64,000 nt of DNA from Patescibacteria group bacterium. GTDB taxonomy: Bacteria > Patescibacteriota > Patescibacteriia > Buchananbacterales > UBA6539. The translations under genes and the position numbers were made by a program. The notes under the pieces were generated by a model. The model was given only the letters and a program-made list of their open reading frames with translations. It was not told the DNA's origin and did no database searches. This document shows positions 1-18,242 of the stretch, piece by piece (position 1 is the stretch's first letter; the number at the start of each line of letters is the position of its first letter). The stretch lies in assembly GCA_034003985.1 (NCBI GenBank), contig JAVEXP010000001.1:155347-219346 (forward strand), in the 5' to 3' direction.

Positions 1-68
1 TGAGCTGGCGCAGCAGTTGGGATAAATTTAAGCCAGTTAATTATAAATCATAACCGGAGATCAACTAT

Positions 69-194: not shown

Positions 195-217
195 CTTATC
201 AGTTATCGGTGTAAAAA

Positions 218-258
218 CCCAGCCTTTATAAGGCTGGGTTTAGGTTTAGCTTGTCTTT
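218..258 (+). terminator. Intrinsic terminator: hairpin aaacccagcc/ggctgggttt followed by a T-rich run.
   Basis: Perfect inverted repeat cccagcc-tttataa-ggctggg, then tttaggtttagcttgtcttttttt. Confidence 0.45.
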
Positions 259-285
259 TTTTGGCAGAGTGATAAACTACAGATA

Positions 286-848: not shown

Positions 849-855
849 AGAGGGC

Positions 856-884
856 TTGACACCATAATGGTTTAGTATTAATAT
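856..884 (+). promoter_or_regulatory. Sigma70-like promoter for the TrpR-like gene: TTGACA, 17-nt spacer, TAATAT.
   Basis: ttgaca at 856-861 and taatat at 879-884. An AT-rich leader follows. Confidence 0.5.
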
Positions 885-909
885 ATTAATATAGTAATAC
901 ATTAATACA

Positions 910-1212
910 ATGAAGAAAGTCAACCAAGTCAAAAATCAATGGCAAACCAAGGAAACGGCCCAGTTATTTAAGGCCATCGCCAAAATTGGCACTACTCGTC
1001 AGGCCGAGCAATTTATTCGTGACCTGTGTACCTTGGACGAAATTTATGAAATGGCCAGACGCTGGCAGGCAGTCAGAATGATTAATCAAGGCAAGTCCTA
1101 CCGAGAAATCGCCGCCAAGACCGGGTTAAGCACCACCACCGTTACCCGGGTAGCTTACTGGCTAAATTACGGCGAGGGTGGTTATCGGGCCATTTTGAAG
1201 AAAACAAAATAA
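910..1212 (+). CDS. TrpR-like protein of the YerC/YecD family, a small helix-turn-helix regulator-like protein.
   Basis: 100 aa. The C-terminal block ...SYREIAAKTGLSTTTVTRVAYWLNYGEGGY... is typical of the TrpR/YerC family. A terminator hairpin follows at 1305-1328. Confidence 0.7.
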   Translation: MKKVNQVKNQWQTKETAQLFKAIAKIGTTRQAEQFIRDLCTLDEIYEMARRWQAVRMINQGKSYREIAAKTGLSTTTVTRVAYWLNYGEGGYRAILKKTK

Positions 1213-1304
1213 TTATGAGGAATCAGATACAAACCACTAATCATCAGCAAATTACCTGGCCAGAGTCGAGGTGATTTGACATTGTTTAATTCAATTTCAG
1301 CTTA

Positions 1305-1328
1305 CCCCGCCTCTGGCGGGATTTTTTG
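1305..1328 (+). terminator. Intrinsic terminator: ccccgcc-tctg-gcggg followed by a T-run.
   Basis: Short GC stem followed by attttttg. Confidence 0.5.
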
Positions 1329-1362
1329 TGGATCTTTTCACTAACCAATGGAGGGCACAAAG

Positions 1363-1722
1363 ATGCCAAAGTATCGATTGGATGAAGACTGGCAGGTTGA
1401 TTTCGGCAAGCTTGGCGGATTGGTGGCGGTAGTCATTCAGGATTGGCGGACCAATCAGGTGCTGCAGCAGGCTTTCATGAATCAGGAAAGCTTTCGGCGC
1501 ACTCTTGCTACCGGTGAGATCTGGCTGTGGTCGCGCTCCCGCCAGAAACTGTGGCACAAGGGCGAAACTAGCGGCAATGTTATGCTCGTCAAGGAGCTTT
1601 GGCTGGATTGCGATGGGGATTGCGTTTTGGCCAAAGTTAAAGTGCTGGGCAATGCCTTGGCCTGCCACGAAGATCGTCGGTCTTGTTTCGCCCGGCGCTT
1701 GAAAAAGCAAACCGGCAAGTAA
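1363..1722 (+). CDS. hisI: Phosphoribosyl-AMP cyclohydrolase (HisI), monofunctional.
   Basis: The motifs GLVAVVIQD, WSRSRQKLWHKGETSGN, DCDGD and ACHEDRRSCF match the HisI family. GGAGGG sits 6 nt upstream of the ATG at 1363. The track's longer start is at 1348. Confidence 0.85.
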   Translation: MPKYRLDEDWQVDFGKLGGLVAVVIQDWRTNQVLQQAFMNQESFRRTLATGEIWLWSRSRQKLWHKGETSGNVMLVKELWLDCDGDCVLAKVKVLGNALACHEDRRSCFARRLKKQTGK

Positions 1723-1845
1723 CTGAGTGCTAGTCACAGCAATTCAATCAGAGCGAGAAGGCTATTGGCTTGACCGACCGTTATCGAGCGTGTTAACTTT
1801 GGTTGAGGCAAAACTTCAACGCGGTGATCCGAAGAGGAGTAAGAT

Positions 1846-2751
1846 ATGAAAGCCAAAGGATGCAGATTGATCGTCCCGGACGGTTCCTTAATGGACACCG
1901 TTCATCAGTTGTTGGCCGAAGCGGATTGCCCGGTTAGTTATCCCAGCAGCCGGGCTTATCGCGGAATCATTGCCAATCACCGGCTTTTCCCGCCGCCTTT
2001 TCATCTGGTTCACCGGATGCGGCCGTGGGATTCACCGTTGGTGGTAGCCGCGCAACGAGCGGAATTGGCGTTTACCGGCCAAGATTTGATTATCGAAGCC
2101 GGTTGCCAGGATCAGGTGGTGGTCCTGGACAAGTATCCGCTTTCGCGGGGTGGCGTTGGTTTTACCAAGTTGGTGTTGGCAGTGACAAGCGATTCTTTGA
2201 TCAAATCGGTGACAGATCTTGGTCCACAACACCAGGTGGCTACCGAATACCCCAACTACGCGCGGCAGTGGCTGGCGGCCAAGGGTGTTAATCCTCGGAT
2301 TGTCTGCTGCCACGGTTCGTTGGAAGCTTTTGCCGACTTCGCCGACGCGATTTTTGAGAATACCGAAACCGGGACTTCGTTGAAAGTCGGCGGGTGGCGG
2401 ATCATTGAAGATCTACCCAAGTCGCAGACTTGCTTGATTACTTATTCGCAAGCCTTGGAAGATGAAGTTCAGAATGCCATCATCCAGGAATTTCGGATAT
2501 TGCTGAATGCGGTCATGGCGGCGCGTGGCCGAGTGATGATCAAGTGCAATGTCAGACCCGAGAACTGCACCAGCATCGCGGCGCTGTTGCCTTCGGCCGG
2601 CAGGCCAACAATGTCACCGTTGTTCGGTAATGACGGCTTTGCCTTGGAGGCAGTTGTGATGCAGTCGGATGTCGAAAGCCTGCTGCCGGCGCTGAAAAAA
2701 GCCGGTGCGACGGCGATTGTAGTCCATAATATCGACAAATTCTTGCCCTAA
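1846..2751 (+). CDS. hisG: ATP phosphoribosyltransferase, long form, with the C-terminal regulatory domain (HisG).
   Basis: ADAIFENTETGTSLKVGGWRIIED...TCLI matches the HisG catalytic motif ADAIxDLVSTGxTLxxNGL. The C-terminal ALLPSAGRPTMSPL...KKAGATAIVV matches the HisG regulatory domain. RBS GAGGAG upstream. Confidence 0.85.
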   Translation: MKAKGCRLIVPDGSLMDTVHQLLAEADCPVSYPSSRAYRGIIANHRLFPPPFHLVHRMRPWDSPLVVAAQRAELAFTGQDLIIEAGCQDQVVVLDKYPLSRGGVGFTKLVLAVTSDSLIKSVTDLGPQHQVATEYPNYARQWLAAKGVNPRIVCCHGSLEAFADFADAIFENTETGTSLKVGGWRIIEDLPKSQTCLITYSQALEDEVQNAIIQEFRILLNAVMAARGRVMIKCNVRPENCTSIAALLPSAGRPTMSPLFGNDGFALEAVVMQSDVESLLPALKKAGATAIVVHNIDKFLP

Positions 2752-2794
2752 GCGGCCCAATTGGCCGAGTGGGCAGAAACGACTGTTGGACGAA

Positions 2795-2830
2795 GCGGAA
2801 ACCTACTTTACGGGTTTCCGTCTTTTTTTA
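2795..2830 (+). terminator. Intrinsic terminator: cggaaacc-tactttac-gggtttccg followed by T8.
   Basis: Stem-loop followed by tctttttttat. Confidence 0.6.
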
Positions 2831-2849
2831 TTCATGCTATAAAAAGATC

Positions 2850-3302
2850 ATGAATTTAAATGACAATTACCGTCAAAGTAACCGCATTACTTCAGTTAAA
2901 GTTGAGGTTGGCGACTTGGCAATCAAATTAACGAATGATTTGCTGGCTTGTGTTGAGACTAATCAGCGCCAAAATTTGGGAGAACAATTATTGGATGAGC
3001 TTTGTGACAGCGCCAAAATCGATATTGTCAAACTGAAAATATCAGACACCAGGCAATATCATAAACGGCGCGGCCGCCGGATTGTTTTCAAGCAATATGG
3101 CTATTATCGCGATAAATACATTTATATTCAAAACCGGACCCCGGCGCGCGGCCAGCTAGTGGCGCCGAAAACTTTTTTGGACACCCTGTTGCACGAATGG
3201 TTGCATCATTATGATACTTACGCCTTGGGACTTAATTCCATTCATACTAAGGGATTTTATGAGCGGTTGAAAGATCTTAGAAATCGTTTGAGGGTTACCT
3301 GA
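2850..3302 (+). CDS. Hypothetical protein with an HExxH motif (LLHEWLHHYD), possibly a zinc-dependent hydrolase.
   Basis: The track ORF 2769-3302 overlaps the upstream terminator, so I chose the internal ATG at 2850. AT-rich host-like composition. Confidence 0.45.
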   Translation: MNLNDNYRQSNRITSVKVEVGDLAIKLTNDLLACVETNQRQNLGEQLLDELCDSAKIDIVKLKISDTRQYHKRRGRRIVFKQYGYYRDKYIYIQNRTPARGQLVAPKTFLDTLLHEWLHHYDTYALGLNSIHTKGFYERLKDLRNRLRVT

Positions 3303-3337
3303 TATTATTGCTAAAGATATTTTGAAGATTCAATGTT

Positions 3338-4351
3338 TTGTGGTATAATTCAAAAGAAATGACCACTAAAAAATTGCATCAATTCATTGAATATCTGAGT
3401 CAGCAAAATTTGGTTTGGGCGCCTCAGAAACAAAATGGCCAGCTGGTCATTTCTCAAGTCAGCAGTCCTGAAGAGGTCGTTTTAACTAATGAGTTGCCAT
3501 TGCATTCGTTTAAAAAAATATTGGTGCCGCCGCAGGAGGCGCTTTTTAGTTATCAAAGAGGCAGAATCAAGGCTAAAATCGAGTCTCCTTATCAGGTGAT
3601 TTTTGGTTTAACCGTGCCGGATTTGAAGGCCGTAATATATTTGGATCAGGTGTTTGCCAAGGATCCTTACTATCAGGCTCGGCGCAAAAAAACTTTAATC
3701 GTCGGTCATAGCTTGGTGCCGGAAGCGGATTATCAATTTTTCATTGAGAAGTTCAGTGAAGATATTTTAGAGCATTTGAAGTTTGATATTTTTTTGGCCA
3801 TTCAGAAAAACCAGAAAAATTTTATCGTTTATACCGGATCAGAAGACGGTCAGCGGATTTTGGATGATTTTGGCTATAAATTATACGAACACATTGAATA
3901 TGTCGGGCCAATCAAAGAAGAGGGTCCCGACAAACAGATGCTGGAGATTAGAAGAAAGTTTTATGATAATCCGAAAATTTGGCAGGATTTGGCCCAGCGC
4001 TGTATTGAGTGCGGAAAGTGCAGTCTGGTTTGCCCGACTTGTTTTTGTCATGACCTTATTGACCAACCGGAGCTGGGTGAGGGTAACGGCACCAGAAATC
4101 GGCAATGGACCGCTTGCTTTTACGCTAATTTTTCCGCCGTGGCCGGTCGTGAATTGGGTAGCGGCAAGCCAAAATTTTTAAATAATACGGAGCAACGGAT
4201 CAGGTTTTGGTATGAACATAAATTTGTCAGGTCGGTTGACGAATTTGGCATTTCTGGCTGTGTCGGCTGCGGGCGCTGTACCAAAGTCTGTCCGGTGGCA
4301 ATTGACATTAAAAAAACTTTACAAAAAATTTTAAAAGGTGAAATTGAATGA
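3338..4351 (+). CDS. [NiFe] hydrogenase group-3b-like beta subunit (sulfhydrogenase HydB-like), a 4Fe-4S dicluster protein.
   Basis: Two ferredoxin-type Cys motifs (CIECGKCSLVCPTC and CVGCGRCTKVCP). The stop overlaps the start of the gamma subunit (ATGA). Confidence 0.7.
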   Translation: MWYNSKEMTTKKLHQFIEYLSQQNLVWAPQKQNGQLVISQVSSPEEVVLTNELPLHSFKKILVPPQEALFSYQRGRIKAKIESPYQVIFGLTVPDLKAVIYLDQVFAKDPYYQARRKKTLIVGHSLVPEADYQFFIEKFSEDILEHLKFDIFLAIQKNQKNFIVYTGSEDGQRILDDFGYKLYEHIEYVGPIKEEGPDKQMLEIRRKFYDNPKIWQDLAQRCIECGKCSLVCPTCFCHDLIDQPELGEGNGTRNRQWTACFYANFSAVAGRELGSGKPKFLNNTEQRIRFWYEHKFVRSVDEFGISGCVGCGRCTKVCPVAIDIKKTLQKILKGEIE

Positions 4352-5166
4352 TTAATCCGTATTTGCCAAAATTTGTTAAGATTAAGGCAATCCGAACGGA
4401 AACTTCCGACACCAAACTTTTTACTTTTGAGTTTGTTGACGCCAAAGATCGTCGTAATTTTTCTTTTGAACACGGTCAATTTATGATGGCTGGTATGCTT
4501 GGTGAGGGCGAAGCGGCTTTTGATATTTGTTCTTCCCGGGCGGATTTACAAAAATTTGATTTGGCGATTCGCCAAGTCGGGAGATTGACTGCCAAATTGC
4601 ATCAGCTGAAAGTTGGAGATCAAATAACAATCCGTGGGCCGTTTGGCAATGGTTTGCCTTTAAATAACTTCAAGAATCGCGATTTATTATTAATTGGCGG
4701 CGGCTGTGGTTTTATCACCATGAGATCGTTTGCTTTGGATTACTTAGCGGGAAAATTGGATATTGGTAAATTGAATATATTTTACGGTTGCGCCAATGAA
4801 GAACGCTTGCTTTTTAAAAAAGAATATAAAAGCTGGCGCAAAAAGGTTGGCTTGGAAATCGCCTTGGACAAGCCGTCAAAAAATTGGCAAGGTAAAATGG
4901 GGACAATTACTTCTTTGTTTAATTCCAGCCAAGATTTTACTGGTGCCGTGGCATTGATGGTTGGACCGCCGGCGATGTATAAATTTGTAATTGAAGAATT
5001 GCAGGACAGAGGTATTAAAGACGAGGACATTTATTTGTCATTGGAGCGCCGAATGTATTGTGGTATTGGAGTCTGTCAGCACTGCGCCATTGGCCCGTAC
5101 TATGTTTGTAAAGACGGCCCGGTTTTTTCTTGGGCGCAGCTGCGGGGAATTCCTAACGCCATTTAG
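4348..5166 (+). CDS. Hydrogenase gamma subunit: a PyrK-like FAD/NAD(P)-binding oxidoreductase with a C-terminal 2Fe-2S site (sulfhydrogenase HydG-like).
   Basis: FNR-like fold motifs (GDQITIRGPFG and LIGGGCG). C-terminal C-x4-C-x2-C...C cluster motif (CGIGVCQHCAIGPYYVC). Confidence 0.75.
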   Translation: MINPYLPKFVKIKAIRTETSDTKLFTFEFVDAKDRRNFSFEHGQFMMAGMLGEGEAAFDICSSRADLQKFDLAIRQVGRLTAKLHQLKVGDQITIRGPFGNGLPLNNFKNRDLLLIGGGCGFITMRSFALDYLAGKLDIGKLNIFYGCANEERLLFKKEYKSWRKKVGLEIALDKPSKNWQGKMGTITSLFNSSQDFTGAVALMVGPPAMYKFVIEELQDRGIKDEDIYLSLERRMYCGIGVCQHCAIGPYYVCKDGPVFSWAQLRGIPNAI

Positions 5167-5169
5167 CCT

Positions 5170-5694
5170 ATGGTGGTTTCAACAAAACAGCCAAAAAAAG
5201 TAAAAGTCAACGATAAAATGCAACAGGGATATGTTTATGAATTAACCGTCAGTGAAGGTAAAAATTTTCATCCGGAATTTAAGCCGGAATTAACGCCTAA
5301 ACAGATGCTGGAATTGGGAGTATTTGGCGGTAAATATTTGAATGATTGCCAAAAAGAATTTCCCAAATCCTGGTTTAAGCGGGCGAAACTGGCCAAACGC
5401 CATAAAAATCTTTCCTTGAATTATTTTAAAGTTGATGCGTCATTGCCGTTGAAGGAGTGGCAGCGTAAAGGCTGGATTTATAAAGACGATCCCCGCGGGT
5501 GGTTTCAATGGTATTGCCGTTATTATCTGGGCAGAAGATTGGATCAAGAAGATTGGCGGCAAATTAAGCGCTGGAAAGCAATTAGGCGCCATATCGGGGC
5601 GATTAAGAATAATTGTTTTCAAGGCGATTTAAACTGTCGGGCGCGCCAACGCCAGGCATTATTGCACTGGGCGTATGACAGCCGAAGGATATAA
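5170..5694 (+). CDS. Conserved hypothetical basic protein with Trp/Arg-rich motifs (GWFQWYCRYYLGRR, RWKAIRRH).
   Basis: 174 aa ORF, tightly packed within the hydrogenase gene array. No recognisable catalytic motif. Confidence 0.45.
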   Translation: MVVSTKQPKKVKVNDKMQQGYVYELTVSEGKNFHPEFKPELTPKQMLELGVFGGKYLNDCQKEFPKSWFKRAKLAKRHKNLSLNYFKVDASLPLKEWQRKGWIYKDDPRGWFQWYCRYYLGRRLDQEDWRQIKRWKAIRRHIGAIKNNCFQGDLNCRARQRQALLHWAYDSRRI

Positions 5695-5710
5695 ATAATC
5701 AGTTATAATA

Positions 5711-6103
5711 ATGAAACCTAAAATATTTATCATTTTCATTATGCCGGTTCTGACTTTGATTTTGGTTGGTTGCAGTTTTAAAGAAGAATACGCCATGCAA
5801 TATACAATTGTTGACCAGGCTGGTATTGAAACTAAAGTAACAGCGACTGATGATGGCGTTAAATTGGAGATTCCTTTTGCTGATTTTACTTGCGATATTA
5901 AAAGCGTTAAGGCAACGCTTGAAAGAAATGAAAGTATTTTTTCGGTTTTTATCCAGGGTAATGAAACCCCAGCGCGCTGTAGCCAAAAATTTAGCGCCGA
6001 TATTAATGGGGTTTCGCCCGGAAGTTATCAACTTAAAGTTTATTATCAGCGAGGGGAAGAAAAGCAAGTAGTTTTAGTTGAAGATTTTCAGGTAACCCAA
6101 TAA
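5711..6103 (+). CDS. Hypothetical lipoprotein.
   Basis: N-terminal signal peptide with a lipobox (LILVGC). Confidence 0.5.
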   Translation: MKPKIFIIFIMPVLTLILVGCSFKEEYAMQYTIVDQAGIETKVTATDDGVKLEIPFADFTCDIKSVKATLERNESIFSVFIQGNETPARCSQKFSADINGVSPGSYQLKVYYQRGEEKQVVLVEDFQVTQ

Positions 6104-6108
6104 TTAAA

Positions 6109-6312
6109 ATGTGCCTAACAGTACCGCTAGAGGTCACTAAAATCAAAAAACAGACAGCGGAATTGGCTGACGGGCGAGTGGTTAATATCAGTTTGGTCAA
6201 AGATGTTGAGGTTGGTGATTGGATTTTGGTTAATGCTAATTTGGCACTAGCCAAAATCACCGTGGAGGAAGCCAGGGAAATTATTGAGTTGTTAGCAATT
6301 AATAAAAAGTAA
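6109..6312 (+). CDS. hypC: Hydrogenase maturation factor HypC.
   Basis: 67 aa starting MCL, the essential Cys2. MCLTVPLEV...VGDWILVNANLAL...EEA matches HypC/HupF. Confidence 0.85.
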   Translation: MCLTVPLEVTKIKKQTAELADGRVVNISLVKDVEVGDWILVNANLALAKITVEEAREIIELLAINKK

Positions 6313-6315
6313 AAT

Positions 6316-7269
6316 ATGGAAACTAAAACAAAATTATTTAATTTTGAGCGACAGCGGATTGGAATAATATTGGTATTGCTAACCGCCTTAATTTCCGGTG
6401 TGGCTAATTTTTTCAATAAATTTGCCATGCAAATTCTAGCCAAAGATGCTTTTCAATATACTGCTTTGAAAAATATAGTAGTGGCCTTGGGTTTGAGTTT
6501 AATTTTATTGTCACCATTGGTGTTGGGGAAATTAAAAAAAATTCAAAAAACTGACTGGCTTAAATTAATCATCATTGGCTTAATTGGCGGCGGTATTCCG
6601 TTTTTGTTGTTTTTTAAAGGTTTGAGCTTAACCAGCGCGGTCAGCGCCAGTTTTATACACAAAACTTTATTTGCGTGGGTTGCTATTTTAGCCTGGCCAG
6701 TCTTGAAAGAAAAAATAGGTAAATGGCAATTTCTGGCTTTGGGGCTGCTGCTGATTGGCAATTTTGTTTTTTTGGATTTTCGAAATTTGCGCTGGGGAGT
6801 CGCTGAAACCATGATTTTAATTGCCACCATTATGTGGGCGATGGAAACAATCGTTGTTAAGGCTACTTTAGCAAAAGTCGAACCAATAGTGGCGGCCTGG
6901 GCGAGGATGTTTTTTGGCTCAATATTTTTGTTTGGCTGGTTAATAATGACTAATAATGTCACTGGTTTGGGACAATTAGATTTAGACCAATTAAGCTGGC
7001 TAGTGGGCGTAGGCGTGTTGCTGTTGGGCTATGTAATTACTTGGTATAGCGGATTGAAACGATTATCCGCCCTAACAACCGCCAGTATTTTGGTTTTAGC
7101 TTCACCAATTACGACATTATTAAATTCAATATTTGTCAGTCATAGTTTCTCGGTTCAGAATTTTTGGAGCAGTTTGATTATTGCCTTCGGTGTTTCGGGC
7201 TTCATCGCCTTGGGATTTAAACAAAACAGTAAATCCAGTTATCAAATATTAGAAAACAGTAAATCGTGA
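6316..7269 (+). CDS. EamA/DMT-superfamily membrane transporter.
   Basis: About 10 predicted transmembrane helices, with the two-repeat architecture typical of EamA. Confidence 0.6.
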   Translation: METKTKLFNFERQRIGIILVLLTALISGVANFFNKFAMQILAKDAFQYTALKNIVVALGLSLILLSPLVLGKLKKIQKTDWLKLIIIGLIGGGIPFLLFFKGLSLTSAVSASFIHKTLFAWVAILAWPVLKEKIGKWQFLALGLLLIGNFVFLDFRNLRWGVAETMILIATIMWAMETIVVKATLAKVEPIVAAWARMFFGSIFLFGWLIMTNNVTGLGQLDLDQLSWLVGVGVLLLGYVITWYSGLKRLSALTTASILVLASPITTLLNSIFVSHSFSVQNFWSSLIIAFGVSGFIALGFKQNSKSSYQILENSKS

Positions 7270-8081
7270 TGTTGTTAAACGACCAAAAATTGGCCGGGGC
7301 TTTACTGGCGGCGCGCTATGCCTTTATGCCTAACCGTTTGAAATATTGCGGACCGGATAATAATGCGGAATTGTTTGGTTATCTTGCCAATCAAACCGCT
7401 GATTTGGGTTTAAAGGAGATGCTCCAGGAATTTCAAACAATGTTTCCTTATTTAAAGTTGATTGCCGAAGCAAACCATATTGCCGATCCGTTCAACTATC
7501 GGGTGGTTGAAGCTTATTGGATTGGTAATGAACTATTGGAGAAAGTCAGGATACAAAATTTTTATCGTTATCTGGTTGATGGCCAGCAATTGAAGAAAAA
7601 GTTTAAATTAAGTTCTTTGGAAAAACTTTTTGGCAAGATTCCTTTGGGCGCCAAGCCGCACCACAGTTTTCATGTTTTAAATGTTCCGAAGCGAACCGGG
7701 TATTATCCGGTTGAACATACTTTAAAAACCATCAACGCTTGTATTATCACGCCGGCGAAAATCAAGCGCTTGAATCTTGAATCATGTTCGGCTGAAGGTC
7801 GGGTTAAAAAAATCAAAGAGCAACGAAATATTTTAAAAAAGATTATGGTTGAAGCCAGGCCATTGGTGGCTGAGGGTAATTGCCTGGAAATCGGTGAAGC
7901 CAGGGAGCAGGAAGTTTTTGTTGAATCTAATAATCAGGCCTTGGTCAAAGGATTTAAAGTTGGTGATGATGTGGCATTGCATTGGAATTGGGTTTGTGAT
8001 TTATTGACGCCAAGCCAGGCTGAAAATTTGTTGAAGTGGAATAATTATAATTTAAAATTGCTTAATCTGAATTATGCCTAA
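7266..8081 (+). CDS. Hypothetical protein, translationally coupled to the hydrogenase small subunit. Possibly a hydrogenase accessory protein.
   Basis: 271 aa. Its start overlaps the EamA stop and its end overlaps the start of the delta subunit. No known motif recognised. Confidence 0.45.
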   Translation: MMLLNDQKLAGALLAARYAFMPNRLKYCGPDNNAELFGYLANQTADLGLKEMLQEFQTMFPYLKLIAEANHIADPFNYRVVEAYWIGNELLEKVRIQNFYRYLVDGQQLKKKFKLSSLEKLFGKIPLGAKPHHSFHVLNVPKRTGYYPVEHTLKTINACIITPAKIKRLNLESCSAEGRVKKIKEQRNILKKIMVEARPLVAEGNCLEIGEAREQEVFVESNNQALVKGFKVGDDVALHWNWVCDLLTPSQAENLLKWNNYNLKLLNLNYA

Positions 8082-8898
8082 AAAAATTAAAAAACCAAGG
8101 GTGGCAATCGTTGGACTAACTTGTTGCGAGGGCTGTGAATTTGCAATTTTGGATTTGGGTCAGAGGTTTTTGGAACTAGCCAAGTATGTTGAGTTAGTCG
8201 AGTTTCGGATGATAAAAGACGATCCGCCAAAACCCGGACCTTATGATATCTGTTTTGTGGAAGGTTCGGCAGTAACCAAAAAGAATGTTGAGATTTTAAA
8301 AGAACTGCGGCGGGTGTCCAAAAAGCTGATTGTGCTAGGCAACTGCGCTCATACCGGCGGAATTCATCGGATGAAGAATTGGATTGGACGAGTTCAGGCA
8401 TTGGGGCAAGTATACGATAAGCCCCGGGGGATTGATAACCCGCCGATTGTACCGATTGCCGAAATTGTCAAAGTGGATTTTACCATCCCGGCTTGTCCGA
8501 TTAACGCCGAAGAATTTTTAATTATTGTAAAACAATTGTTGGCCGGGCGGGAGCCGTTTATTCCCCAAAATCCGGTTTGTTTCGAATGCCAGATTAACGG
8601 TTATGAGTGTTTGCTACAGCAAGGCGAACTTTGTTGCGGGCCAATCACTTTGGGCGGTTGCCAGGCTGTTTGTCTAAAAAGCAAACAGCCATGCTGGGGT
8701 TGCCGAGGTTTACTTGAAGAACCGGATGTTGATAAGTTTGTCCGTAATTGTTTTTTGACCGGTCATACTATTGAAGAAATTGAAAAAGTTTTGGAGGTGT
8801 TTGGAGTTAAAGATGACTGGATTGATCAGGCCAAACAAGAATGGCAATCGCTTCAAAAATCAAAAGCCTTAATTAAGATAACCGGGAAAGAAAAATAA
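8074..8898 (+). CDS. [NiFe] hydrogenase small subunit, group 3 (delta/HydD-like).
   Basis: Proximal FeS cluster motif VAIVGLTCCEGCEF, GNCAHTGG, and further C-rich motifs (CFECQINGYEC and CQAVC). Confidence 0.8.
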   Translation: MPKKIKKPRVAIVGLTCCEGCEFAILDLGQRFLELAKYVELVEFRMIKDDPPKPGPYDICFVEGSAVTKKNVEILKELRRVSKKLIVLGNCAHTGGIHRMKNWIGRVQALGQVYDKPRGIDNPPIVPIAEIVKVDFTIPACPINAEEFLIIVKQLLAGREPFIPQNPVCFECQINGYECLLQQGELCCGPITLGGCQAVCLKSKQPCWGCRGLLEEPDVDKFVRNCFLTGHTIEEIEKVLEVFGVKDDWIDQAKQEWQSLQKSKALIKITGKEK

Positions 8899-8906
8899 TT
8901 AAAATT

Positions 8907-9512
8907 ATGGAATGTTCAAAATGTAAAACTAACAATGATGACAAATCAAAGGTTTGTCGAATTTGCGGCGCTGATTTAACGATGGTGCCGGCCGCAATTG
9001 ATTTCAAGGCGGGAACTGAATCAAGCTCGGCGGCGGAAAAATATCAAGGGTTGGGTGGGTGGCTAATACTGGTAGGGCTAGGTTTAATTAGCGCTCCCTT
9101 AATGATTGGCTGGGCGTTGTATCAAGATTTTTTGCCGCTGGTTTTGGAGTCCCAGGTCTGGCAGACTTTAACTTCTCCAGGCAGTCTGATTTACAGTTCA
9201 TTGTGGAAGCCAACCTTAATGATGGAGGTAACCGTTAACATTATATTTTTTGTTTGGACAATATATCTGCTGGTTTTATTTTTCAGGAAGAGCGCGCATT
9301 TTCCTAAATTGTATATAATTTTTTTGGCGGTGAATTTATTATTTTTAATGATCGACGATATTTTACTTTTTCAGATCAGGCGCCAATTACCGATTCTGGG
9401 TCAGACTGTTGGTGAACAAAAATTTAGTTCATTGTCAGCGGTTTTGCCAACAGTTATTTGGATACCATATATGCTGAATTCCAAAAGAGTAAAACAAACT
9501 TTTGTTAATTAA
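8907..9512 (+). CDS. Membrane protein with an N-terminal zinc ribbon (CxxC...CxxC) and 4-5 transmembrane helices.
   Basis: MECSKCKT...VCRICGADL followed by hydrophobic helices. Sits between the small and large hydrogenase subunit genes. Confidence 0.5.
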   Translation: MECSKCKTNNDDKSKVCRICGADLTMVPAAIDFKAGTESSSAAEKYQGLGGWLILVGLGLISAPLMIGWALYQDFLPLVLESQVWQTLTSPGSLIYSSLWKPTLMMEVTVNIIFFVWTIYLLVLFFRKSAHFPKLYIIFLAVNLLFLMIDDILLFQIRRQLPILGQTVGEQKFSSLSAVLPTVIWIPYMLNSKRVKQTFVN

Positions 9513-9518
9513 TCATTT

Positions 9519-10805
9519 ATGAAGATTAGAATTGATCATTTGGAAAAAATGGAGGGTCACCTGGATTTTGTCGGTGATATTTTGGCTGGTGATGTCGCCA
9601 GCGCCAAAATAAAAACGACGGAAGGAATCAGGCTGATTGAGAGTATTTTGGTTGGTCGCAAGTATTATGACGCGCCAATCATTACGGCCAGAATTTGCGG
9701 GATTTGTCCGGTAGTTCATTCGTTGAATATGATTAAGACAGTCGAAAATGCTTTTGGCATTAAACCCAGTCAGCAGACTATTAAATTGCGGAAACTAATG
9801 GAGTTCTCACAAGTCATTCACAGCCATGCTTTACATTTGTATTTTTTGTCGATGCCGGATTTTTACGGAGTAAGAGATGATATTGACTTTATTAAACAAA
9901 ATCCAACCCAAGCCTCGGCGGCTATCAAAATTAGGGAATTTGCTTTGAAGATTTTGGAGGTGGTAGCCGGTCGGGCTATTCATCCAATTGCCTGCGAAGT
10001 CGGCGGCTTTAAAATTTTGCCCAGCCAGGAACAACTTAAAGAATTGTTGAGGAATTATAAAGAAACAATGGTCGCCGCGATGGAATTGATGGTGTTTGCG
10101 GCCAGATTGCCCTTGCCGCAGTTTGAACGCCGGATGGAATTTGCCAGTTTGTATTCGCCGGATGAATATGCGATTTATGACGGTCGGATAAAATTTTTGG
10201 ACGGCAAGATTATTAAGTCCAGTAAGTATGCCAAGGTAATAGATGAATATCAGTTGCTGGCGTCAGCAGCGAAGCGAGCAAATTATCAAGGTAAAAGCTA
10301 TATGGTAGGCGCTTTGGCCAGGCTTAATATTAATCATGACAAGTTGAGCAAGGAAGCCGCCGCCGTAGTTAAAGATTTAAAATTGAAATTTCCAATTTAT
10401 AATACCTTTGCCAATGTTTTGGCCCAAGCGATTGAAGTGGTTCATGCTATGCAAGAAGCCGGTAATTTACTGAGTGATTTGGCCGATAATTTGAAATTTG
10501 AAGAAAGCCGGGGCCATAATTTGGCTTTGATTGCCGATGCTAATCCCCAAGGTAGAGTTACGGTTGGCTATTCGGTAATGGAAGCGCCGCGGGGGATATT
10601 ATATGACATGGTAGAAATAAATGCCGATGGAGTAATCACTAGATCGGATATCATTACGCCGACCGTTCAATATTTAAACAATATCGAGGAGGATTTAAAA
10701 GTTTATTTGCCCAATTTAAAACAGTTATCAGACCGCCAGCGGCGGCAAAAAATTAAGACTTTAATCAGAGCTTACGATCCTTGTATTTCGTGTGCTACCC
10801 ATTAA
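9519..10805 (+). CDS. [NiFe] hydrogenase large subunit, group 3. It ends exactly at the DPCxxCxxH motif with no C-terminal extension.
   Basis: N-terminal L1 motif RICGICPVVHSL. C-terminal L2 motif DPCISCATH is immediately followed by a stop. Confidence 0.9.
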   Translation: MKIRIDHLEKMEGHLDFVGDILAGDVASAKIKTTEGIRLIESILVGRKYYDAPIITARICGICPVVHSLNMIKTVENAFGIKPSQQTIKLRKLMEFSQVIHSHALHLYFLSMPDFYGVRDDIDFIKQNPTQASAAIKIREFALKILEVVAGRAIHPIACEVGGFKILPSQEQLKELLRNYKETMVAAMELMVFAARLPLPQFERRMEFASLYSPDEYAIYDGRIKFLDGKIIKSSKYAKVIDEYQLLASAAKRANYQGKSYMVGALARLNINHDKLSKEAAAVVKDLKLKFPIYNTFANVLAQAIEVVHAMQEAGNLLSDLADNLKFEESRGHNLALIADANPQGRVTVGYSVMEAPRGILYDMVEINADGVITRSDIITPTVQYLNNIEEDLKVYLPNLKQLSDRQRRQKIKTLIRAYDPCISCATH

Positions 10806-12039
10806 TATGATTGATAATCTATTCTTTTTGATTATTTTAATTCTAGTTTCCGCTTTTTTCTCCGCTTCGGAAATCGCGATTTTTTCTTTGTCGCAAGCTA
10901 AAATAAAATCCTTAGAGAAAAAGAAAGTCCGTAACGCCAAGCAACTGGCGGCTTTGCGCGCTAAACCTCAGCGGTTATTAATTAATATTTTGATTGGCAA
11001 TAATTTGGTTAATATCGGTGCCTCGTCGATGGCGGCCGTGATCGCCTGGCAAATTTTTGGCAATATCGGTCCGGCGATTGCCACTGCTGTTTTAACGATT
11101 TTAATTTTGGTTTTTGGTGAAATTGGTCCCAAGACTTTGGCTTCGGCCAATGCCGAAAGGTTTTCTTTGGCAATCGCGCCGATTTTAACTTTGATTGATA
11201 TTATTTTTCGCCCGGTTTCCATTTGGTTTGAGTTTTTTAACAAACTGGCAATTAAATATCTGGCCGGCGGCCGGGCTCGACCGTCAATGACCGAAGAGGA
11301 ATTGACTGCTTTGGCCGAAATCGGCGCGGAAGAAGGAGTGGTTGAACCAAAAGAAAAAGAAATGATTAAACGGATTTTGGAATTCAATGATATTAATGCT
11401 GAGGATGTAATGAGGGTTAGGAGTGATATTTTTGCCTTGCCTCAGAATTTAACACTGAGACAGGCTTTGTCTGAAATTAATGAAGCTCATTATTCCCGCG
11501 TGCCAATTTTTGAGAGAACTATCGACAATATTACGGGGGTGATTTACCTGCCAGACATTCTTCGAGAATTGACCGCCGGTAATGATGATTTGCCAATTTT
11601 GAAGATTTCTCGCAAACCTTATTTTATTCCATTACAAAGGAAAATCGATGACATTTTTAAGGATTTTCAGCGCCGCCACAATCATATTGCAATCGTTCTG
11701 GACGGCCAGGGCAATACCGCCGGACTGGTGACTTTGGAGGATTTGTTAGAAGAGATTGTCGGGGAAATTATGGATGAGTCTGATGTGGACGAATCATTGA
11801 TAAAGCGAATTGACAAGAAAGCAATTTTGGTTGATGCTCAAACAGAAATTAGAAATATTAATAATTTTTTCAATATCAATATCCCCGGCCAGCCTCATGA
11901 CTTTGTGGCCGAAGCTTTTCTGGAAAAATTTGGACGAATTCCCAAACCGGGGGACGAGGCTTTGTTTGAAAATTTTAAAATGGTAATTGAAAAAGCGACT
12001 AAGAAAAAAATTGAAAAGATAAGAATAATTAAATTTTAA
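10792..12039 (+). CDS. HlyC/CorC (CNNM) family transporter-associated protein: DUF21 membrane domain, CBS pair and CorC_HlyC domain.
   Basis: 4-TM N-terminus with a conserved GExxPK motif, CBS domains, and a C-terminal transporter-associated domain. Confidence 0.8.
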   Translation: MLPINMIDNLFFLIILILVSAFFSASEIAIFSLSQAKIKSLEKKKVRNAKQLAALRAKPQRLLINILIGNNLVNIGASSMAAVIAWQIFGNIGPAIATAVLTILILVFGEIGPKTLASANAERFSLAIAPILTLIDIIFRPVSIWFEFFNKLAIKYLAGGRARPSMTEEELTALAEIGAEEGVVEPKEKEMIKRILEFNDINAEDVMRVRSDIFALPQNLTLRQALSEINEAHYSRVPIFERTIDNITGVIYLPDILRELTAGNDDLPILKISRKPYFIPLQRKIDDIFKDFQRRHNHIAIVLDGQGNTAGLVTLEDLLEEIVGEIMDESDVDESLIKRIDKKAILVDAQTEIRNINNFFNINIPGQPHDFVAEAFLEKFGRIPKPGDEALFENFKMVIEKATKKKIEKIRIIKF

Positions 12040-12040
12040 T

Positions 12041-12301
12041 ATGCACGATTTGCACGCGGCTGATCAAATTCTAAAATTGGTTTTAGCTCAAGCCAATGAT
12101 CACGGATTATTGAGGGTGAAAAGTATTGTTGTTGAACTTGGCAGTATGATTGAACATGGTGAAGAGATAAATCCGGACAATCTAACTTTTAATCTTAAAT
12201 TGTTGGCCAAAAATACCCCAGCCGAAGCCATGGCAGTAACAATCAACAAAGTTCAAGGGGGTAATTGGAAGCTGGTGGAAATTGAAGGAGACAATAATTG
12301 A
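12041..12301 (+). CDS. hypA: HypA-like hydrogenase nickel-insertion protein, truncated. The N-terminal Ni-binding domain (MHD...) is present but the C-terminal CxxC/CxxC zinc finger is absent.
   Basis: MHDLHAADQILKLVLAQANDHGLLRVKSIVVELGSMIEHGEEINPDNLTFNLKLLAKNTPAEAMAVTI aligns with the HypA N-terminal domain. The protein is 86 aa with no cysteines. Confidence 0.6.
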   Translation: MHDLHAADQILKLVLAQANDHGLLRVKSIVVELGSMIEHGEEINPDNLTFNLKLLAKNTPAEAMAVTINKVQGGNWKLVEIEGDNN

Positions 12302-13305
12302 TAATTAAGATGGAAGAAGAGAAAATAGAACAACCAGATCAAACCGCTGATTTGTCTAACCAGTCCGACTATTGGGATGATTATACCAGGCAAATGCGAT
12401 CTCATAATATTGGGGTGGTTGAAAGAGATGGTGGTTTTTATGTTGATACGCCCGAAGGTGAGGCGGCAGTCAGGCTGCCCGTCAGTCATGAGGCAATGCT
12501 GGATCAGGCCGAACGGGTCGGTCAAAGGGAGAGTTTAGTTAAAGCCCGTTTGACTAGCGAACAAGCTCCGCTGGCAGCTTGGGTTCAGGAAGGACGAAAG
12601 CAGATGGAACAAAATCAGTCGGCTTTTGCTGAGGCAAAAAACGCCGAGGATATTATGAGGGAATTAACCAGGCAAGGTAATTTATTGGTAGCTGAAAATA
12701 TTGTCGGTAAACTTAGGGGTTTTCCTGATCAGGCGAAAAGGTTTGTGATCCCGTCGAATGTTATTTCCGAAGTTGCTTCGGCTTTTGAGAAGTTGGGATA
12801 TTATGTTAAGAGGGTGTCGGGCAAAGGCATTTTTGTCCAAGGCGATTTTGCCGCTTACGCGTTTTTAAACGCTGACAAAGTTGAACAAGGAAATTTAGCA
12901 GAAGAAATGATTGATGATGATGGTGACGATGCGGGTGATGGGTCGTCGGGGCGGGACGGAAAGAAAGGAAAACCAACACAAGCGATGAAAGGAAAGTTGG
13001 GACCGAAATCATTTGGGCAGGGAGGTAAAGTTGGTGGTTTGGCAAAAGGTACTGGTAAACATGCCAACGGCCCAGTATCTTTAAGGAAACCGGGGGAGGC
13101 TGATGTTAATATTGGAAATGAGCCATTGGTAATTACCGAAACGGTGGTACCGATGACGGCGCTGTCTTCGCAGCCAAATATTACTTCCCATACCAAAACG
13201 GCAACGAGTCCAGAAGTCGCCGCTTCTCAACCAAGTGTGTCAAGTGGCACTAATTCGGCCGGCGGCGGAATGCCAACTGTCACTCCCGGTCCGGGCGCGG
13301 GCTAA
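12298..13305 (+). CDS. Hypothetical protein with an acidic patch (DDDGDDAGDG) and a Gly/Lys-rich, low-complexity C-terminal half.
   Basis: 335 aa ORF with no recognisable domain. Confidence 0.4.
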   Translation: MIIKMEEEKIEQPDQTADLSNQSDYWDDYTRQMRSHNIGVVERDGGFYVDTPEGEAAVRLPVSHEAMLDQAERVGQRESLVKARLTSEQAPLAAWVQEGRKQMEQNQSAFAEAKNAEDIMRELTRQGNLLVAENIVGKLRGFPDQAKRFVIPSNVISEVASAFEKLGYYVKRVSGKGIFVQGDFAAYAFLNADKVEQGNLAEEMIDDDGDDAGDGSSGRDGKKGKPTQAMKGKLGPKSFGQGGKVGGLAKGTGKHANGPVSLRKPGEADVNIGNEPLVITETVVPMTALSSQPNITSHTKTATSPEVAASQPSVSSGTNSAGGGMPTVTPGPGAG

Positions 13306-13355: not shown

Positions 13356-14585
13356 ATGAATCTAAAATCAATCAAATCGGTTAAAAATTTGAAAGGCAAA
13401 ACCGTAATGTTGAGGGTGGCTTACGATGTCCCATTGAAGAAACAAGGCAAGGGCTGGGCGGTGGCCGATGATCGTCGAATTGCCGAAACTTTGCCAACTA
13501 TTAAATATTTGCTGCAGCAACATTGCAAGATTGTAATTTTATCTTGGCTGAAGCGGCCTGGTGGTGAAGTGGTTGATAAATATCGCCTGGATCCGGTGGC
13601 TAAAAATCTTGGGATATTATTAAAGAAACCGGTTAAAAAGTTGGATGACTGCGTTGGTCCGAAGGTTTATCAGGAAATCAAAAATTTGAAAAACGGCGAA
13701 ATTTTAATGTTGGAGAATGTTAGATTTTATCCCGAAGAAGAAGCGGCCAACAAGATGTTTGGGGCTTTGTTGGTTCATGGCATTGACCTGATTGTTTTTG
13801 ACGCTTTTGCCCAAGCTCATCGGATTCACTCTTCCACGACGGTGATTACCAAGCTATTGCCAACTTATTCCGGGTTTTTGTTGGAAAAAGAATTGAAAGC
13901 TTTGGGTCAAATTAATAAAAGCCCAAAACGGCCGTTGGTAGTAATTTTGGGCGGGGCAAAAATATCAGACAAGATCGATGTTTTGCAGGAGTTGTTGAAA
14001 ATAGCTGACAAAGTTTTAATCGGCGGCGGGATGGCCAATGTTTTTATGAAGGCTAGCGGGATAGCGGTTGGTTCATCTTTTTTGGAAGATATTTTTGTTG
14101 ACAAAGCCAAAAGAAAAAAAGTTAATACCATTAAATTGGCCAGAAAACTTTTGAAAAAATACCGGACGAAAATCGTTTTGCCTGTTGATTTCGTGGCGGC
14201 TAATAAAATTGACCAAAATGCCTTGGTCGAAGTCGTTGATTTAGAAGAGTGCCAACACATTAATTCCCGTTGGAAATTCTTGGATATTGGACCAAAATCA
14301 GTGGCTAACTTTATGGTAGAAATCAAAGCGGCCAAAACGATTTTTTGGAACGGCCCCATGGGTGTGTTTGAAATAGAAAAATTTGCATTTGGCACCAAAA
14401 AAATCGCCCAGGCTGTCGGTCGTAGCAAGGCCATTAGTGTGGTTGGCGGGGGGGATACAGAAGCGGTGATTGGTAAATACAAATTAGAAAAAAAAATCAG
14501 TCATGTTTCGACTGGCGGCGGAGCTAGTTTGGAATTTTTAAGCGGCCGAACTTTGCCGGCATTAAAAAATGTAATTAAAAAATAA
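13356..14585 (+). CDS. pgk: Phosphoglycerate kinase.
   Basis: LKGKTVMLRVAYDVPL at the N-terminus, GGGMANVF, and a Gly-rich C-terminal ATP-binding motif. Confidence 0.9.
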   Translation: MNLKSIKSVKNLKGKTVMLRVAYDVPLKKQGKGWAVADDRRIAETLPTIKYLLQQHCKIVILSWLKRPGGEVVDKYRLDPVAKNLGILLKKPVKKLDDCVGPKVYQEIKNLKNGEILMLENVRFYPEEEAANKMFGALLVHGIDLIVFDAFAQAHRIHSSTTVITKLLPTYSGFLLEKELKALGQINKSPKRPLVVILGGAKISDKIDVLQELLKIADKVLIGGGMANVFMKASGIAVGSSFLEDIFVDKAKRKKVNTIKLARKLLKKYRTKIVLPVDFVAANKIDQNALVEVVDLEECQHINSRWKFLDIGPKSVANFMVEIKAAKTIFWNGPMGVFEIEKFAFGTKKIAQAVGRSKAISVVGGGDTEAVIGKYKLEKKISHVSTGGGASLEFLSGRTLPALKNVIKK

Positions 14586-14595
14586 CAATAAAATT

Positions 14596-15384
14596 ATGGA
14601 AATGCCCATCACTAATGCTAAATCCAATCTCCCAAAACAAATTCTGTTGTTGTTGATAAGTATCCTGGTGGTAATGTTGGTAATAATGTTAGCAGTGATT
14701 ATCAGAAATCAATGGCGAGCATTCGACTATATTGGTCGCAGCGATGAAAGGATATACACCATCACCATCCAGGGTGAAGGAAAGGTAACAGCTATTCCCG
14801 ATATTGCTCAGGTTAGCTTAGGGGTTCAAGCTGAAAAAATAAAAGTTGAGGATGCTCAGCGGGAGAATACCCAAAAAATGAACGACATTATTGCCGCGCT
14901 TAAGGGTCTGAATGTTGAACAAAAGGATATTAAAACTACCAATTATAACATCAGTCCAAAATATGATTGGAATAATGGTACTAGGATCTTACGCGGGTAC
15001 ATTGTCAGTCAGAATGTTACGGTAAAAATCAGAGATTTAGATCGAATTGGCGATATTTTAGACAAAGCGGCCGATTTGGGAGCCAATCAAGTTGGGGGGT
15101 TGAATTTTACGATTGATGAGCCGGAAGTGTTGCGCCAGGAAGCCAGAGAAAAAGCTTTGGCCAGCGCCAAGGCCAAGGCTGAGAGCCTGGCCAAAGTTGC
15201 CGAAGTAAAATTGGGCAAATTAGTTTCCTTTAATGAAAGTGGCGATAATTATGATTATCCTTACTACTTGGAATCACAGGCCATGATGATGGATTCATTG
15301 AAAGTTGCCGAGGAGACTACGACAATTGAGCCCGGCAGTCAGGATATTACGGTTAATGTAACAGTCACTTACGAAGTATTATAA
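14596..15384 (+). CDS. SIMPL-domain (DUF541) protein with an N-terminal membrane anchor.
   Basis: SIMPL-family pattern (GxxQVGGLNF and the KAKA helix region). One N-terminal TM segment. Confidence 0.7.
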   Translation: MEMPITNAKSNLPKQILLLLISILVVMLVIMLAVIIRNQWRAFDYIGRSDERIYTITIQGEGKVTAIPDIAQVSLGVQAEKIKVEDAQRENTQKMNDIIAALKGLNVEQKDIKTTNYNISPKYDWNNGTRILRGYIVSQNVTVKIRDLDRIGDILDKAADLGANQVGGLNFTIDEPEVLRQEAREKALASAKAKAESLAKVAEVKLGKLVSFNESGDNYDYPYYLESQAMMMDSLKVAEETTTIEPGSQDITVNVTVTYEVL

Positions 15385-15394
15385 AATATAATTT

Positions 15395-18241: not shown

Positions 18242-18242
18242 T

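Follow-up and report, generated by a model that had tools for sequence, protein, structure and literature searches.

A predicted group 3b-type [NiFe] hydrogenase of a Patescibacteria genome whose divided subunit genes flank a conserved HypC-EamA-DUF6390 module

The [NiFe] hydrogenases of the Candidate Phyla Radiation (CPR) include two clades specific to these bacteria, termed hyd1 and hyd2, that are related to the group 3b enzymes. According to the study that described them (Jaffe et al. 2020, BMC Biol 18:69, PMC7304191), the beta and gamma families of hyd1 are co-located and sometimes do not lie immediately upstream of the small subunit, the small subunit is full-length in hyd1 (~250 aa) and truncated (~164 aa) in hyd2, and a partly homologous HypC-like family occurs near both. 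The CPR 3b enzymes are also treated by Valentin-Alvarado et al. 2024 (PMC10811913). The word 'maturation' does not occur in either paper, and in the sections consulted neither EamA, DUF6390, the missing C-terminal extension of the large subunit nor a zinc-less HypA is named. Here we analyse a 64-kb stretch of a Patescibacteria group bacterium (contig JAVEXP010000001.1, positions 155,347 to 219,346; hereafter the window), which carries the genes of a predicted hydrogenase of this kind. The genome belongs to the CPR, beta and gamma genes lie near that of the large subunit, the small subunit has 274 residues and a HypC-like family is encoded nearby; thus the full-length small subunit and the beta and gamma genes place the window in hyd1, from which it shows no essential difference. 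Its large subunit is 100% identical to a protein annotated in a Patescibacteria metagenome-assembled genome, and Candidatus Buchananbacteria are, with other Patescibacteria, the source of relatives that share 50-76% of its residues. The enzyme is a further example of CPR hyd1, whose non-contiguous subunit genes have already been published (PMC7304191). What the locus adds, as hypotheses, is a hydrogenase-linked EamA-DUF6390 module and a pared-down maturation set.

We consider it probable that positions 3359-13305 form a single operon encoding a hyd1 group 3b enzyme, an accessory module and a reduced complement of maturation factors (Table 1). The adjacency of the beta and gamma genes at 3338-5166, the five co-directional genes between gamma and delta, the zinc-ribbon membrane protein between small and large subunits, and the CorC/CNNM gene and zinc-finger-less hypA that follow the large subunit had all been recognized in a first-pass annotation, and both coordinates and strand agree with the list of open reading frames (ORFs) and the Pfam and NCBIfam matches. 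That annotation took the catalytic genes to be unusually interspersed, mosaic-like, with inserted genes for transporters and membrane proteins, a view that comparison with related loci bears out only in part. The window proteins were mapped onto the neighbourhoods of five relatives of the large subunit (75-51% identity) and onto 80 genome loci anchored on DUF6390, and layouts and homologues were counted over 87 loci. The window order, beta-gamma...hypC-(eamA)-DUF6390-small-large-hypA', is found in 25 of the 87, in which the large subunits are 41-75% identical; L026 contains the eight core genes alone and no others. Ten loci have contiguous beta-gamma-small-large genes followed by hypC, eamA and DUF6390, the order and strand of these varying and hypB or hycI being interposed in some, and in another 20 the EamA-DUF6390 pair is divergent from a hyd2-type enzyme. 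The separation of beta-gamma from small-large is thus the standard architecture of this CPR clade and not a feature of the window in particular. It is real relative to the archaeal hydBGDA order, it is conserved, and the non-adjacency is already in print (PMC7304191). Most of the split is due to a dedicated accessory module, not to transporter genes inserted at random.

Two observations arose from the same comparison. At L040 (11846-14872, - strand) the genes divergent from the EamA-DUF6390 pair encode a Pyr_redox_2 flavoprotein of 412 aa, a small subunit of 162 aa and a large subunit of 431 aa, which fits the hyd2 described by Jaffe et al. 2020 (PMC7304191), and about 19 loci are similar. CPR-like hyd1 clusters with the same synteny as the window also occur in L010, L013, L015, L022 and others under Gammaproteobacteria, Pseudomonadales or Saccharibacteria titles, and these titles look unreliable; records titled 'uncultured Gammaproteobacteria' and 'Saccharibacteria' clash with their CPR-like gene content and were left out of the taxonomy.

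The association of hypC, EamA and DUF6390 extends well beyond the split loci. The DUF6390 protein of the window is an unambiguous member of its family (183 bits, cut-off 25; positions 3-239 of the 244 in PF19927 are matched by residues 9-268), which comprises 3,228 homologues by word index and 1,511 representatives at 50% identity; no paper mentioning DUF6390 was found in our literature search. Among 50 DUF6390 loci for which each flank is 5 kb or longer, [NiFe] subunits were detected with the window proteins in 45, and three of the remaining five carry hycI and/or hypB. EamA adjoins DUF6390 in 60 of the 80 genome loci. Either the pair or DUF6390 by itself is found with hyd2 (L040) and with 3b enzymes of both gene orders, and in L029 the order HycI-HypA-HypC-EamA-DUF6390 accompanies an HdrA-MvhD-linked, Mvh-type 3c-like enzyme. 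DUF6390 also lies beside group-1-like enzymes, whose small subunit bears an SSU_C domain (L070, L091-L095). HypC-EamA-DUF6390 is therefore a conserved hydrogenase-linked accessory module that occurs in several phyla.

Conservation and structure give some indication of what DUF6390 may do. Its AlphaFold model (predicted local distance difference test, pLDDT, 79; predicted template-modelling score, pTM, 0.81) consists of a helical N-domain and a C-terminal beta-barrel with a helix. The C-domain matches HypC in hhalign (94% probability, E 1.4e-7) and resembles 2z1c in Foldseek with a probability of 0.97 but an E value of 0.11. No Foldseek match in the PDB reached E <= 0.001, the N-domain is without a recognizable solved analogue, and the profile found only sub-threshold matches among PDB sequences (HypC, E 0.3). 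A match of the profile to the amyloid-precursor E2 domain (E 0.06) was judged to be due to chance. Of 129 diverse representatives, 128-129 retain each of four residues, C28, H133, C159 and H239. C159 aligns with Cys2 of HypC, and H239 with the presumed position of His51 of Escherichia coli HypC. The C-domain is thus similar to the HypC/HupF/HybG family in its OB-fold, C-terminal helix and conserved Cys and His. It differs in that the cysteine is internal (residue 159) rather than N-terminal, that there is an extra helical domain of ~155 residues with its own conserved Cys and His, that some members are fused to helix-turn-helix (HTH) domains or EamA, and that PF01455 gives no match.

The fusions and neighbours of DUF6390 point towards a link with transport. 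A single sequence from a Kerfeldbacteria metagenome-assembled genome (P0361) is an EamA::DUF6390 fusion. HTH::DUF6390 fusions are of XRE, PadR, GntR and ArsR types, the PadR fusion forming a 15-member cluster present on many contigs. The four that were examined all lie inside [NiFe] (group-1-like) clusters and directly beside transporter genes, namely a Nik/Opp-type ATP-binding cassette (ABC) system in L091/L092 and L095, an SBP_bac_1-type ABC system in L093 and a major facilitator superfamily (MFS) permease in L094, which also has NicO, HycI, HypA and a ParA-type HypB. In the Chloroflexia locus L061 a stand-alone DUF6390 gene is beside a Nik/Opp-type ABC system. Indeed, DUF6390 adjoins a transporter gene, whether of the drug/metabolite transporter (DMT), ABC or MFS type, in almost all contexts examined, the exceptions being L070 (hypC-DUF6390-small) and L006. 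The Cys2His2 set, the HTH fusions and the transporter adjacency are what we would expect of an input or chaperone domain that binds a metal or another ligand, for which nickel would be the obvious candidate. The metal-responsive one-component regulators and metallochaperones of nickel systems (NikR, RcnR/InrS, HypB and SlyD) offer a working analogy, in that they share with DUF6390 a Cys/His-rich ligand site, genetic linkage to nickel-type transporters and hydrogenase genes, and occurrence as an input domain joined to HTH domains; no relationship in sequence or fold was found, however, and membership is not implied. As separate observations, the fusion genes with a PadR, GntR, ArsR or XRE domain are at L091:1852-2961, L093:1468-2499, L094:8001-8972 and L095:4413-5516, and their clusters also carry NifU/Rieske, HycI, HypA or NicO genes.

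We offer, as a tentative proposal, a more general interpretation: the EamA-DUF6390 pair or, more broadly, DUF6390 with an adjacent transporter of varying family may be a widespread but unrecognized module that serves [NiFe] hydrogenases in phyla including Patescibacteria and Chloroflexota. In DUF6390 we would then have a new Cys2His2 domain of HypC-like fold for a metal or ligand, acting as the stand-alone partner of a transporter or, where fused to an HTH domain, as the sensor of a hydrogenase-specific regulator, and in the genome-reduced CPR bacteria the module would be combined with a zinc-less HypA, a large subunit without an extension and, in sister clusters, a HypC::HydE-like radical S-adenosylmethionine (SAM) protein, as a pared-down or alternative maturation system. 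If it is true that DUF6390 and its transporter supply or sense nickel or a component of the cofactor, they would represent a new player in the biogenesis or regulation of hydrogenases, and the four conserved residues provide a small target that can be tested.

It could be argued that DUF6390 has a more direct role, as a self-contained scaffold for the Fe(CN)2CO unit whose N-domain provides HypD-type ligands, so that it replaces part of HypD, HypE and HypF in the genome-reduced CPR bacteria, the HypC::HydE-like radical-SAM protein being its equivalent in sister clusters. The alignment of C159 and H239 with the two HypC positions is in keeping with this idea, the more so as the HypC of the window has Asn at the second, and so is the lack of hypB, hypD, hypE and hycI, and by motifs only hypF, at every Patescibacteria locus. 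The sister clusters are also relevant here. Two CPR hyd1 clusters, L007 (7936-9201) and L088 (8001-9281), carry a fusion of hypC with a radical-SAM/BATS domain, which scores above the NCBIfam equivalog cut-off for HydE, the [FeFe] maturase (264.8 against 254.6 bits). The fusion gene fills the same slot between gamma and small subunit, and EamA and DUF6390 are absent from both loci. There are at least 120 clusters of such fusions in Patescibacteria, and distant copies (L089, L090) lie away from hydrogenase genes. In a neighbour-joining tree of the large subunit, built without support values, the HypC::radical-SAM clusters nest among those bearing DUF6390, which keeps alive a biosynthetic or scaffold role for DUF6390. 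Against this, Chloroflexota clusters equipped with hypD and hypE (L059) or with hypB and hycI (L061) contain DUF6390 as well, the repeated DNA-binding fusions and transporter adjacency suit a ligand-sensing domain better, and the absence of hypD, hypE and hypF covers the window and the flanks of the loci rather than whole CPR genomes. On balance we regard the scaffold role as unlikely.

A second alternative is that the five genes between gamma and delta, the DUF2569 gene and the CNNM gene are all unrelated genes that entered a once uninterrupted hydBGDA operon. Contiguity is indeed seen in the archaeal reference operon and in the ten related loci. Unrelated genes do enter the gaps in question, which in relatives extend from a few bases to 3.8 kb between gamma and hypC, small and large subunits, and large subunit and hypA'. 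They include genes for CbiM with PDGLE or the lipoprotein, a 610-aa protein, aspartyl-tRNA synthetase, an Ldh_2 dehydrogenase, a nitroreductase, a sorbosone-dehydrogenase-like protein, RsmE, an acyltransferase, a cysteine desulfurase and a histidine kinase. Moreover, several of the genes in the window are rare or unique: the basic 174-aa protein has a homologue in one of the 87 loci (L010), and the DUF2569 and 335-aa proteins have none in any of them. The lipoprotein has homologues in L001, L002, L009 and L010; its gene is downstream of a CbiM/NikM-type Ni/Co permease gene in L001, L009 and L010, directly so in L001 and with one 96-aa ORF between them in L010, the L002 sequence being cut off upstream of the lipoprotein gene. 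CbiM is absent from the 64-kb window. Random insertion does not explain, however, why hypC-EamA-DUF6390 occupies the same slot in the 25 split loci across the divergence of their large subunits, why the three genes also follow contiguous operons in varying order, or why EamA-DUF6390 lies beside other hydrogenase groups in other phyla; and the non-adjacency in hyd1 had already been reported (Jaffe et al. 2020, PMC7304191). For the locus as a whole we thus consider the accidental mosaic improbable, and for hypC, EamA and DUF6390 it is already largely refuted. Of the five intervening genes that had been taken as insertions, the basic protein and the lipoprotein remain as variable elements and the other three belong to the conserved module. 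The description of DUF2569, in the small-large gap, and CNNM as extra genes is upheld to the extent that comparison with relatives shows them to be variable passengers. We read the basic protein, the lipoprotein, DUF2569, CNNM and the 335-aa gene as passengers, CNNM least certainly because it also lies between the large subunit and hypA' in L010, L013 and L032. In one hyd1 subclade, as a separate observation, gamma is followed by a small methyltransferase gene (L006:7211-7771, L007:7275-7790, L008, L016, L017, L088:7317-7826) whose top match is an archaeal protein-lysine N-methyltransferase (E 5e-22), and in L006 and L088 a 47-aa LiaF-TM-like gene comes after it.

Maturation of [NiFe] hydrogenases is usually held to require HypA to HypF and a protease. 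In the window only hypC and hypA' are visible, as the first-pass annotation had noted. Neither motif scans nor tblastn with the HypB, HypD, HypE and HycI of Chloroflexota loci revealed hypB, hypD, hypE or hycI in the 64 kb; hypF, looked for by motifs only and without a positive control, was not found either. The flanks (±10 kb) of the Patescibacteria loci likewise contain no hypB, hypD, hypE, hypF or hycI, hypF again by motifs only. At loci outside the CPR there are hycI in 15, hypB in seven, full-length hypA, and hypD-hypE in L059. A literature search returned no relevant paper linking CPR or Patescibacteria with Hyp maturation genes. The absence of an endopeptidase is accounted for by the large subunit itself, which ends at the His of DPCxxCxxH, the stop codon following directly after DPCISCATH. 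Its alignment stops at residue 424, whereas the 9nez_D and 5yxy chains run to 428, and leaves the last four positions of the ShyA and HydA profiles unmatched; no residue follows DPCxxCxxH in 118 of 120 CPR homologues (50-100% identity). A large subunit without a C-terminal extension makes the protease unnecessary, and hence explains the 'missing' gene. HypA' retains the nickel-binding N-terminus as M1-H2-D3, compared with Met-His-Glu in the family, of which M1 and H2 are invariant in eight sequences, and has no Cys in its 86 residues, so that both CxxC pairs of the zinc domain are absent; the full-length reference in the alignment was HypA of the Dehalococcoidales locus L029. It scores 33.7 bits with PF01155 (cut-off 28.9) and 37 with the NCBIfam equivalog (cut-off 146). 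HypA is 84-86 aa long in every hyd1 locus (L001-L008, L088), and the short zinc-less form is thus conserved clade-wide. HypC passes both PF01455 (59.7 bits, cut-off 28.5) and, narrowly, TIGR00074 (48.1, cut-off 48) and keeps Cys2; at what is presumably the His51 position, assigned by comparison with E. coli HypC, the motif LVNANLA has Asn, as have four of five relatives, and the L007 fusion has Thr.

In this clade, then, the enzyme is accompanied by HypC, a truncated HypA and two uncharacterized conserved genes only, and its large subunit is born without a cleavable tail, which bears on whether annotated CPR hydrogenases can be made active. The lack of hypB, hypD, hypE, hypF and endopeptidase genes from the window and all the CPR loci examined might be taken to mean that the hydrogenase is decaying or non-functional. 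We consider this very improbable, as all the ORFs are intact, the synteny is conserved over deep divergence, the L1 and L2 Cys motifs are kept in 118 of 120 homologues (50-100% identity) and no endopeptidase is needed where there is no C-terminal extension.

The four structural subunits had been called sulfhydrogenase-type (group 3b-like) in the first-pass annotation. Each of them lies closest to the ShyABCD/HydABDG models, and the top PDB match of each is the corresponding chain of Pyrococcus furiosus sulfhydrogenase I (SHI), in agreement with that call. The alpha subunit scores 239 bits with ShyA and 223 with HydA (FrhA 144, VhuA 135), and in the PDB 199 bits with SHI alpha and 191 with Thermococcus kodakarensis HyhL (MvhA 144, HoxH 126). 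The delta subunit scores 147 bits with ShyD and, in the PDB, 123 with SHI delta against 103 with MvhG. For gamma the profile scores are 223 (PRK08345), 192 (AsrB) and 190 (ShyC) bits. For beta they are 128 (ShyB), 118 (AsrA) and 113 (HydB) bits, and SHI beta (9nez_B) is its sole PDB match (E 3e-25). The NiFe ligand motifs of the large subunit are intact, with RICGICPVVH near the N-terminus and DPCISCATH at the C-terminus. Scores for the Shy and Hyd families are far below the NCBIfam equivalog cut-offs, and the enzyme is thus a divergent relative of the archaeal ones. It resembles P. furiosus SHI and T. kodakarensis Hyh (9nez, 9e1j, 5yxy) in its four homologous subunits, their domains and the NiFe Cys motifs, at low identity (E 1e-57 over the full length). 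It differs in that the archaeal order is hydBGDA whereas that of the window is split by accessory genes, that the archaeal large subunit has a four-residue C-terminal extension, and that HypA lacks the zinc domain. Contiguity of hydBGDA, which is typical of group 3b without defining it, is not seen, beta-gamma ending at 5166 and the small subunit starting at 8074. The evidence supports assignment as a predicted cytoplasmic heterotetrameric group 3b [NiFe] hydrogenase of the CPR hyd1 type. That beta and gamma instead form a separate AsrAB- or PyrK-type oxidoreductase, leaving the small and large subunits as the hydrogenase, is scarcely credible, since despite the close second matches to AsrA and AsrB and the 2.9 kb between the two gene pairs, the top matches are to hydrogenase beta and gamma, SHI gamma (9nez_C) exceeds PyrK by 172 to 69 bits, there is no asrC or pyrD nearby, and the pairs are contiguous in the ten loci and always co-occur in the clade. 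The condition that the first-pass annotation had named for its refutation, beta and gamma belonging to an unrelated oxidoreductase such as a PyrK/DHOD-type system, thus does not hold.

By homology, alpha holds the NiFe site, delta and beta carry Fe-S clusters, and gamma binds FAD and NAD(P)H. The enzyme is predicted to act as a redox valve between NAD(P)H and H2 for the linked glycolytic genes pgk, eno and gpmI, and might possibly reduce polysulfide. The split order is usually followed by pgk-SIMPL-eno-gpmI, and in the window pgk, a SIMPL/DUF541 gene, eno and two tandem iPGM genes lie downstream of the operon (13356-19829). In L005 and L022, gap (GAPDH) is beside the cluster. The linkage of pgk, eno and iPGM suggests redox coupling to lower glycolysis. 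In this clade hypC, eamA and DUF6390 have their place between gamma and delta rather than after alpha, with hypA' after alpha, and the gaps from gamma to hypC, delta to alpha, alpha to hypA' and hypA' to pgk are insertion hot spots that receive unrelated genes in different genomes. In the proposed maturation scheme HypC would carry the Fe(CN)2CO unit and the zinc-less HypA would insert nickel. DUF6390, the least certain component, may be a cytoplasmic metal-binding (Cys2His2) sensor or chaperone that, in concert with EamA, provides or monitors a metal or ligand required by the active site, nickel being the likeliest.

Several points weigh against this interpretation. The group 3b call is based on scores against profiles and PDB chains together with a tree from the literature, and the roles proposed for EamA and DUF6390 are drawn from genomic context, residue conservation and gene fusions. 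The lone EamA::DUF6390 fusion could be the result of a lost stop codon. A Ni/Co or nickel transporter is already present in some loci, CbiM in L001, L003, L010 and L013 and NicO in L094, and the cargo may thus differ from nickel. If hypD, hypE and hypF are lacking from the rest of the genome, the maturation scheme is incomplete. Finally, CNNM is at the same position in four loci and may not be a pure passenger.

Table 1. Genes and promoter-like site of the hydrogenase cluster, with positions in the window
Feature	Position	Strand	Evidence or remark
Promoter-like site	3322..3349	+	TTGAAG-16 nt-TATAAT with TG upstream; consensus match only
Hydrogenase beta subunit (HydB/ShyB-type, AsrA-like Fe-S)	3338..4351	+	Fer4_22 E 4e-27; top NCBIfam match ShyB
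Hydrogenase gamma subunit	4348..5166	+	FAD_binding_6, NAD_binding_1, DHODB_Fe-S_bind (Pfam)
Basic protein, 174 aa, isoelectric point 10.0	5170..5694	+	No Pfam or NCBIfam match
Lipoprotein, 130 aa	5711..6103	+	LVGC lipobox
HypC	6109..6312	+	PF01455 E 3e-16; N-terminus MCLTVP
EamA/DMT-family permease	6316..7269	+	EamA E 5e-31
DUF6390 protein, 271 aa	7266..8081	+	PF19927 E 7e-54
Hydrogenase small (delta) subunit, full length, 274 aa	8074..8898	+	Oxidored_q6
Zinc-ribbon and DUF2569 membrane protein	8907..9512	+	DUF2569 E 1e-32
[NiFe] hydrogenase large (alpha) subunit	9519..10805	+	All four active-site Cys present
CNNM/CBS/CorC-type membrane protein	10792..12039	+	Pfam; probable real start ATG 10807
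Short HypA (hypA'), 86 aa	12041..12301	+	PF01155 33.7 bits, profile positions 1-69 of 112
335-aa protein, low-complexity C-terminal part	12298..13305	+	No Pfam match; 4-nt overlap with hypA'

The most economical reading of the gene spacing is that the genes from beta to that of the 335-aa protein (~3357-13305) form a single transcription unit, of which the latter is probably the last. The 12 listed ORFs are all intact and on the + strand, the intergenic spacing across the cluster varies from -14 to +16 nt with several overlapping stop and start codons (the EamA stop overlaps the DUF6390 start in TGATG), and no convincing internal terminator was found within the cluster. The promoter-like site has the top score between 1200 and 14000 (10/12), and the end of its second hexamer falls 10 nt upstream of ATG 3359, the start of beta that is probable because the protein is 326-332 aa long in relatives. 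A similar TATAAT lies ~10 nt upstream of pgk. No Rfam match or tRNA was found in the window. Two explanations of the layout were rejected. A horizontal-transfer island is discounted on two grounds: with a G+C content of 0.40-0.41 the cluster does not stand out from the window, and most split-type loci that extend far enough retain the synteny downstream, pgk-SIMPL-eno-gpmI or at least pgk-SIMPL-eno. Misassembly is discounted because the identical order is found in independent assemblies (L001/L002; L003/L004/L014).

Elsewhere in the window, three genes stand in a row at 59163-62331, encoding a radical SAM protein, an unassigned protein of 445 aa and a LigB/Memo-like protein; by eye they resemble an AmmeMemoRadiSam-type set, the domains confirmed being Radical_SAM and LigB/Memo. 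The gene at 38139-39371 (- strand), opposite to its neighbours, encodes a FadL/OMPP1/TodX-type outer-membrane transport protein (PF03349, E 7e-44) and sits in a 4-kb stretch with a raised G+C content (0.47 against ~0.42). Patescibacteria are generally thought to lack an outer membrane, which makes this gene odd, and it may be a transferred gene or reflect a binning or assembly issue. Upstream of the cluster, the ORF at 2769-3302 has an HExxH-like motif (HEWLH) and no family match, and contains a strong terminator-like hairpin (2795-2821), its real start being probably at 2850. The first 3,000 nt of the window (1-3000) have a G+C content of ~0.50, against 0.40 in the hydrogenase cluster, and contain a Trp-repressor-like gene and hisG.

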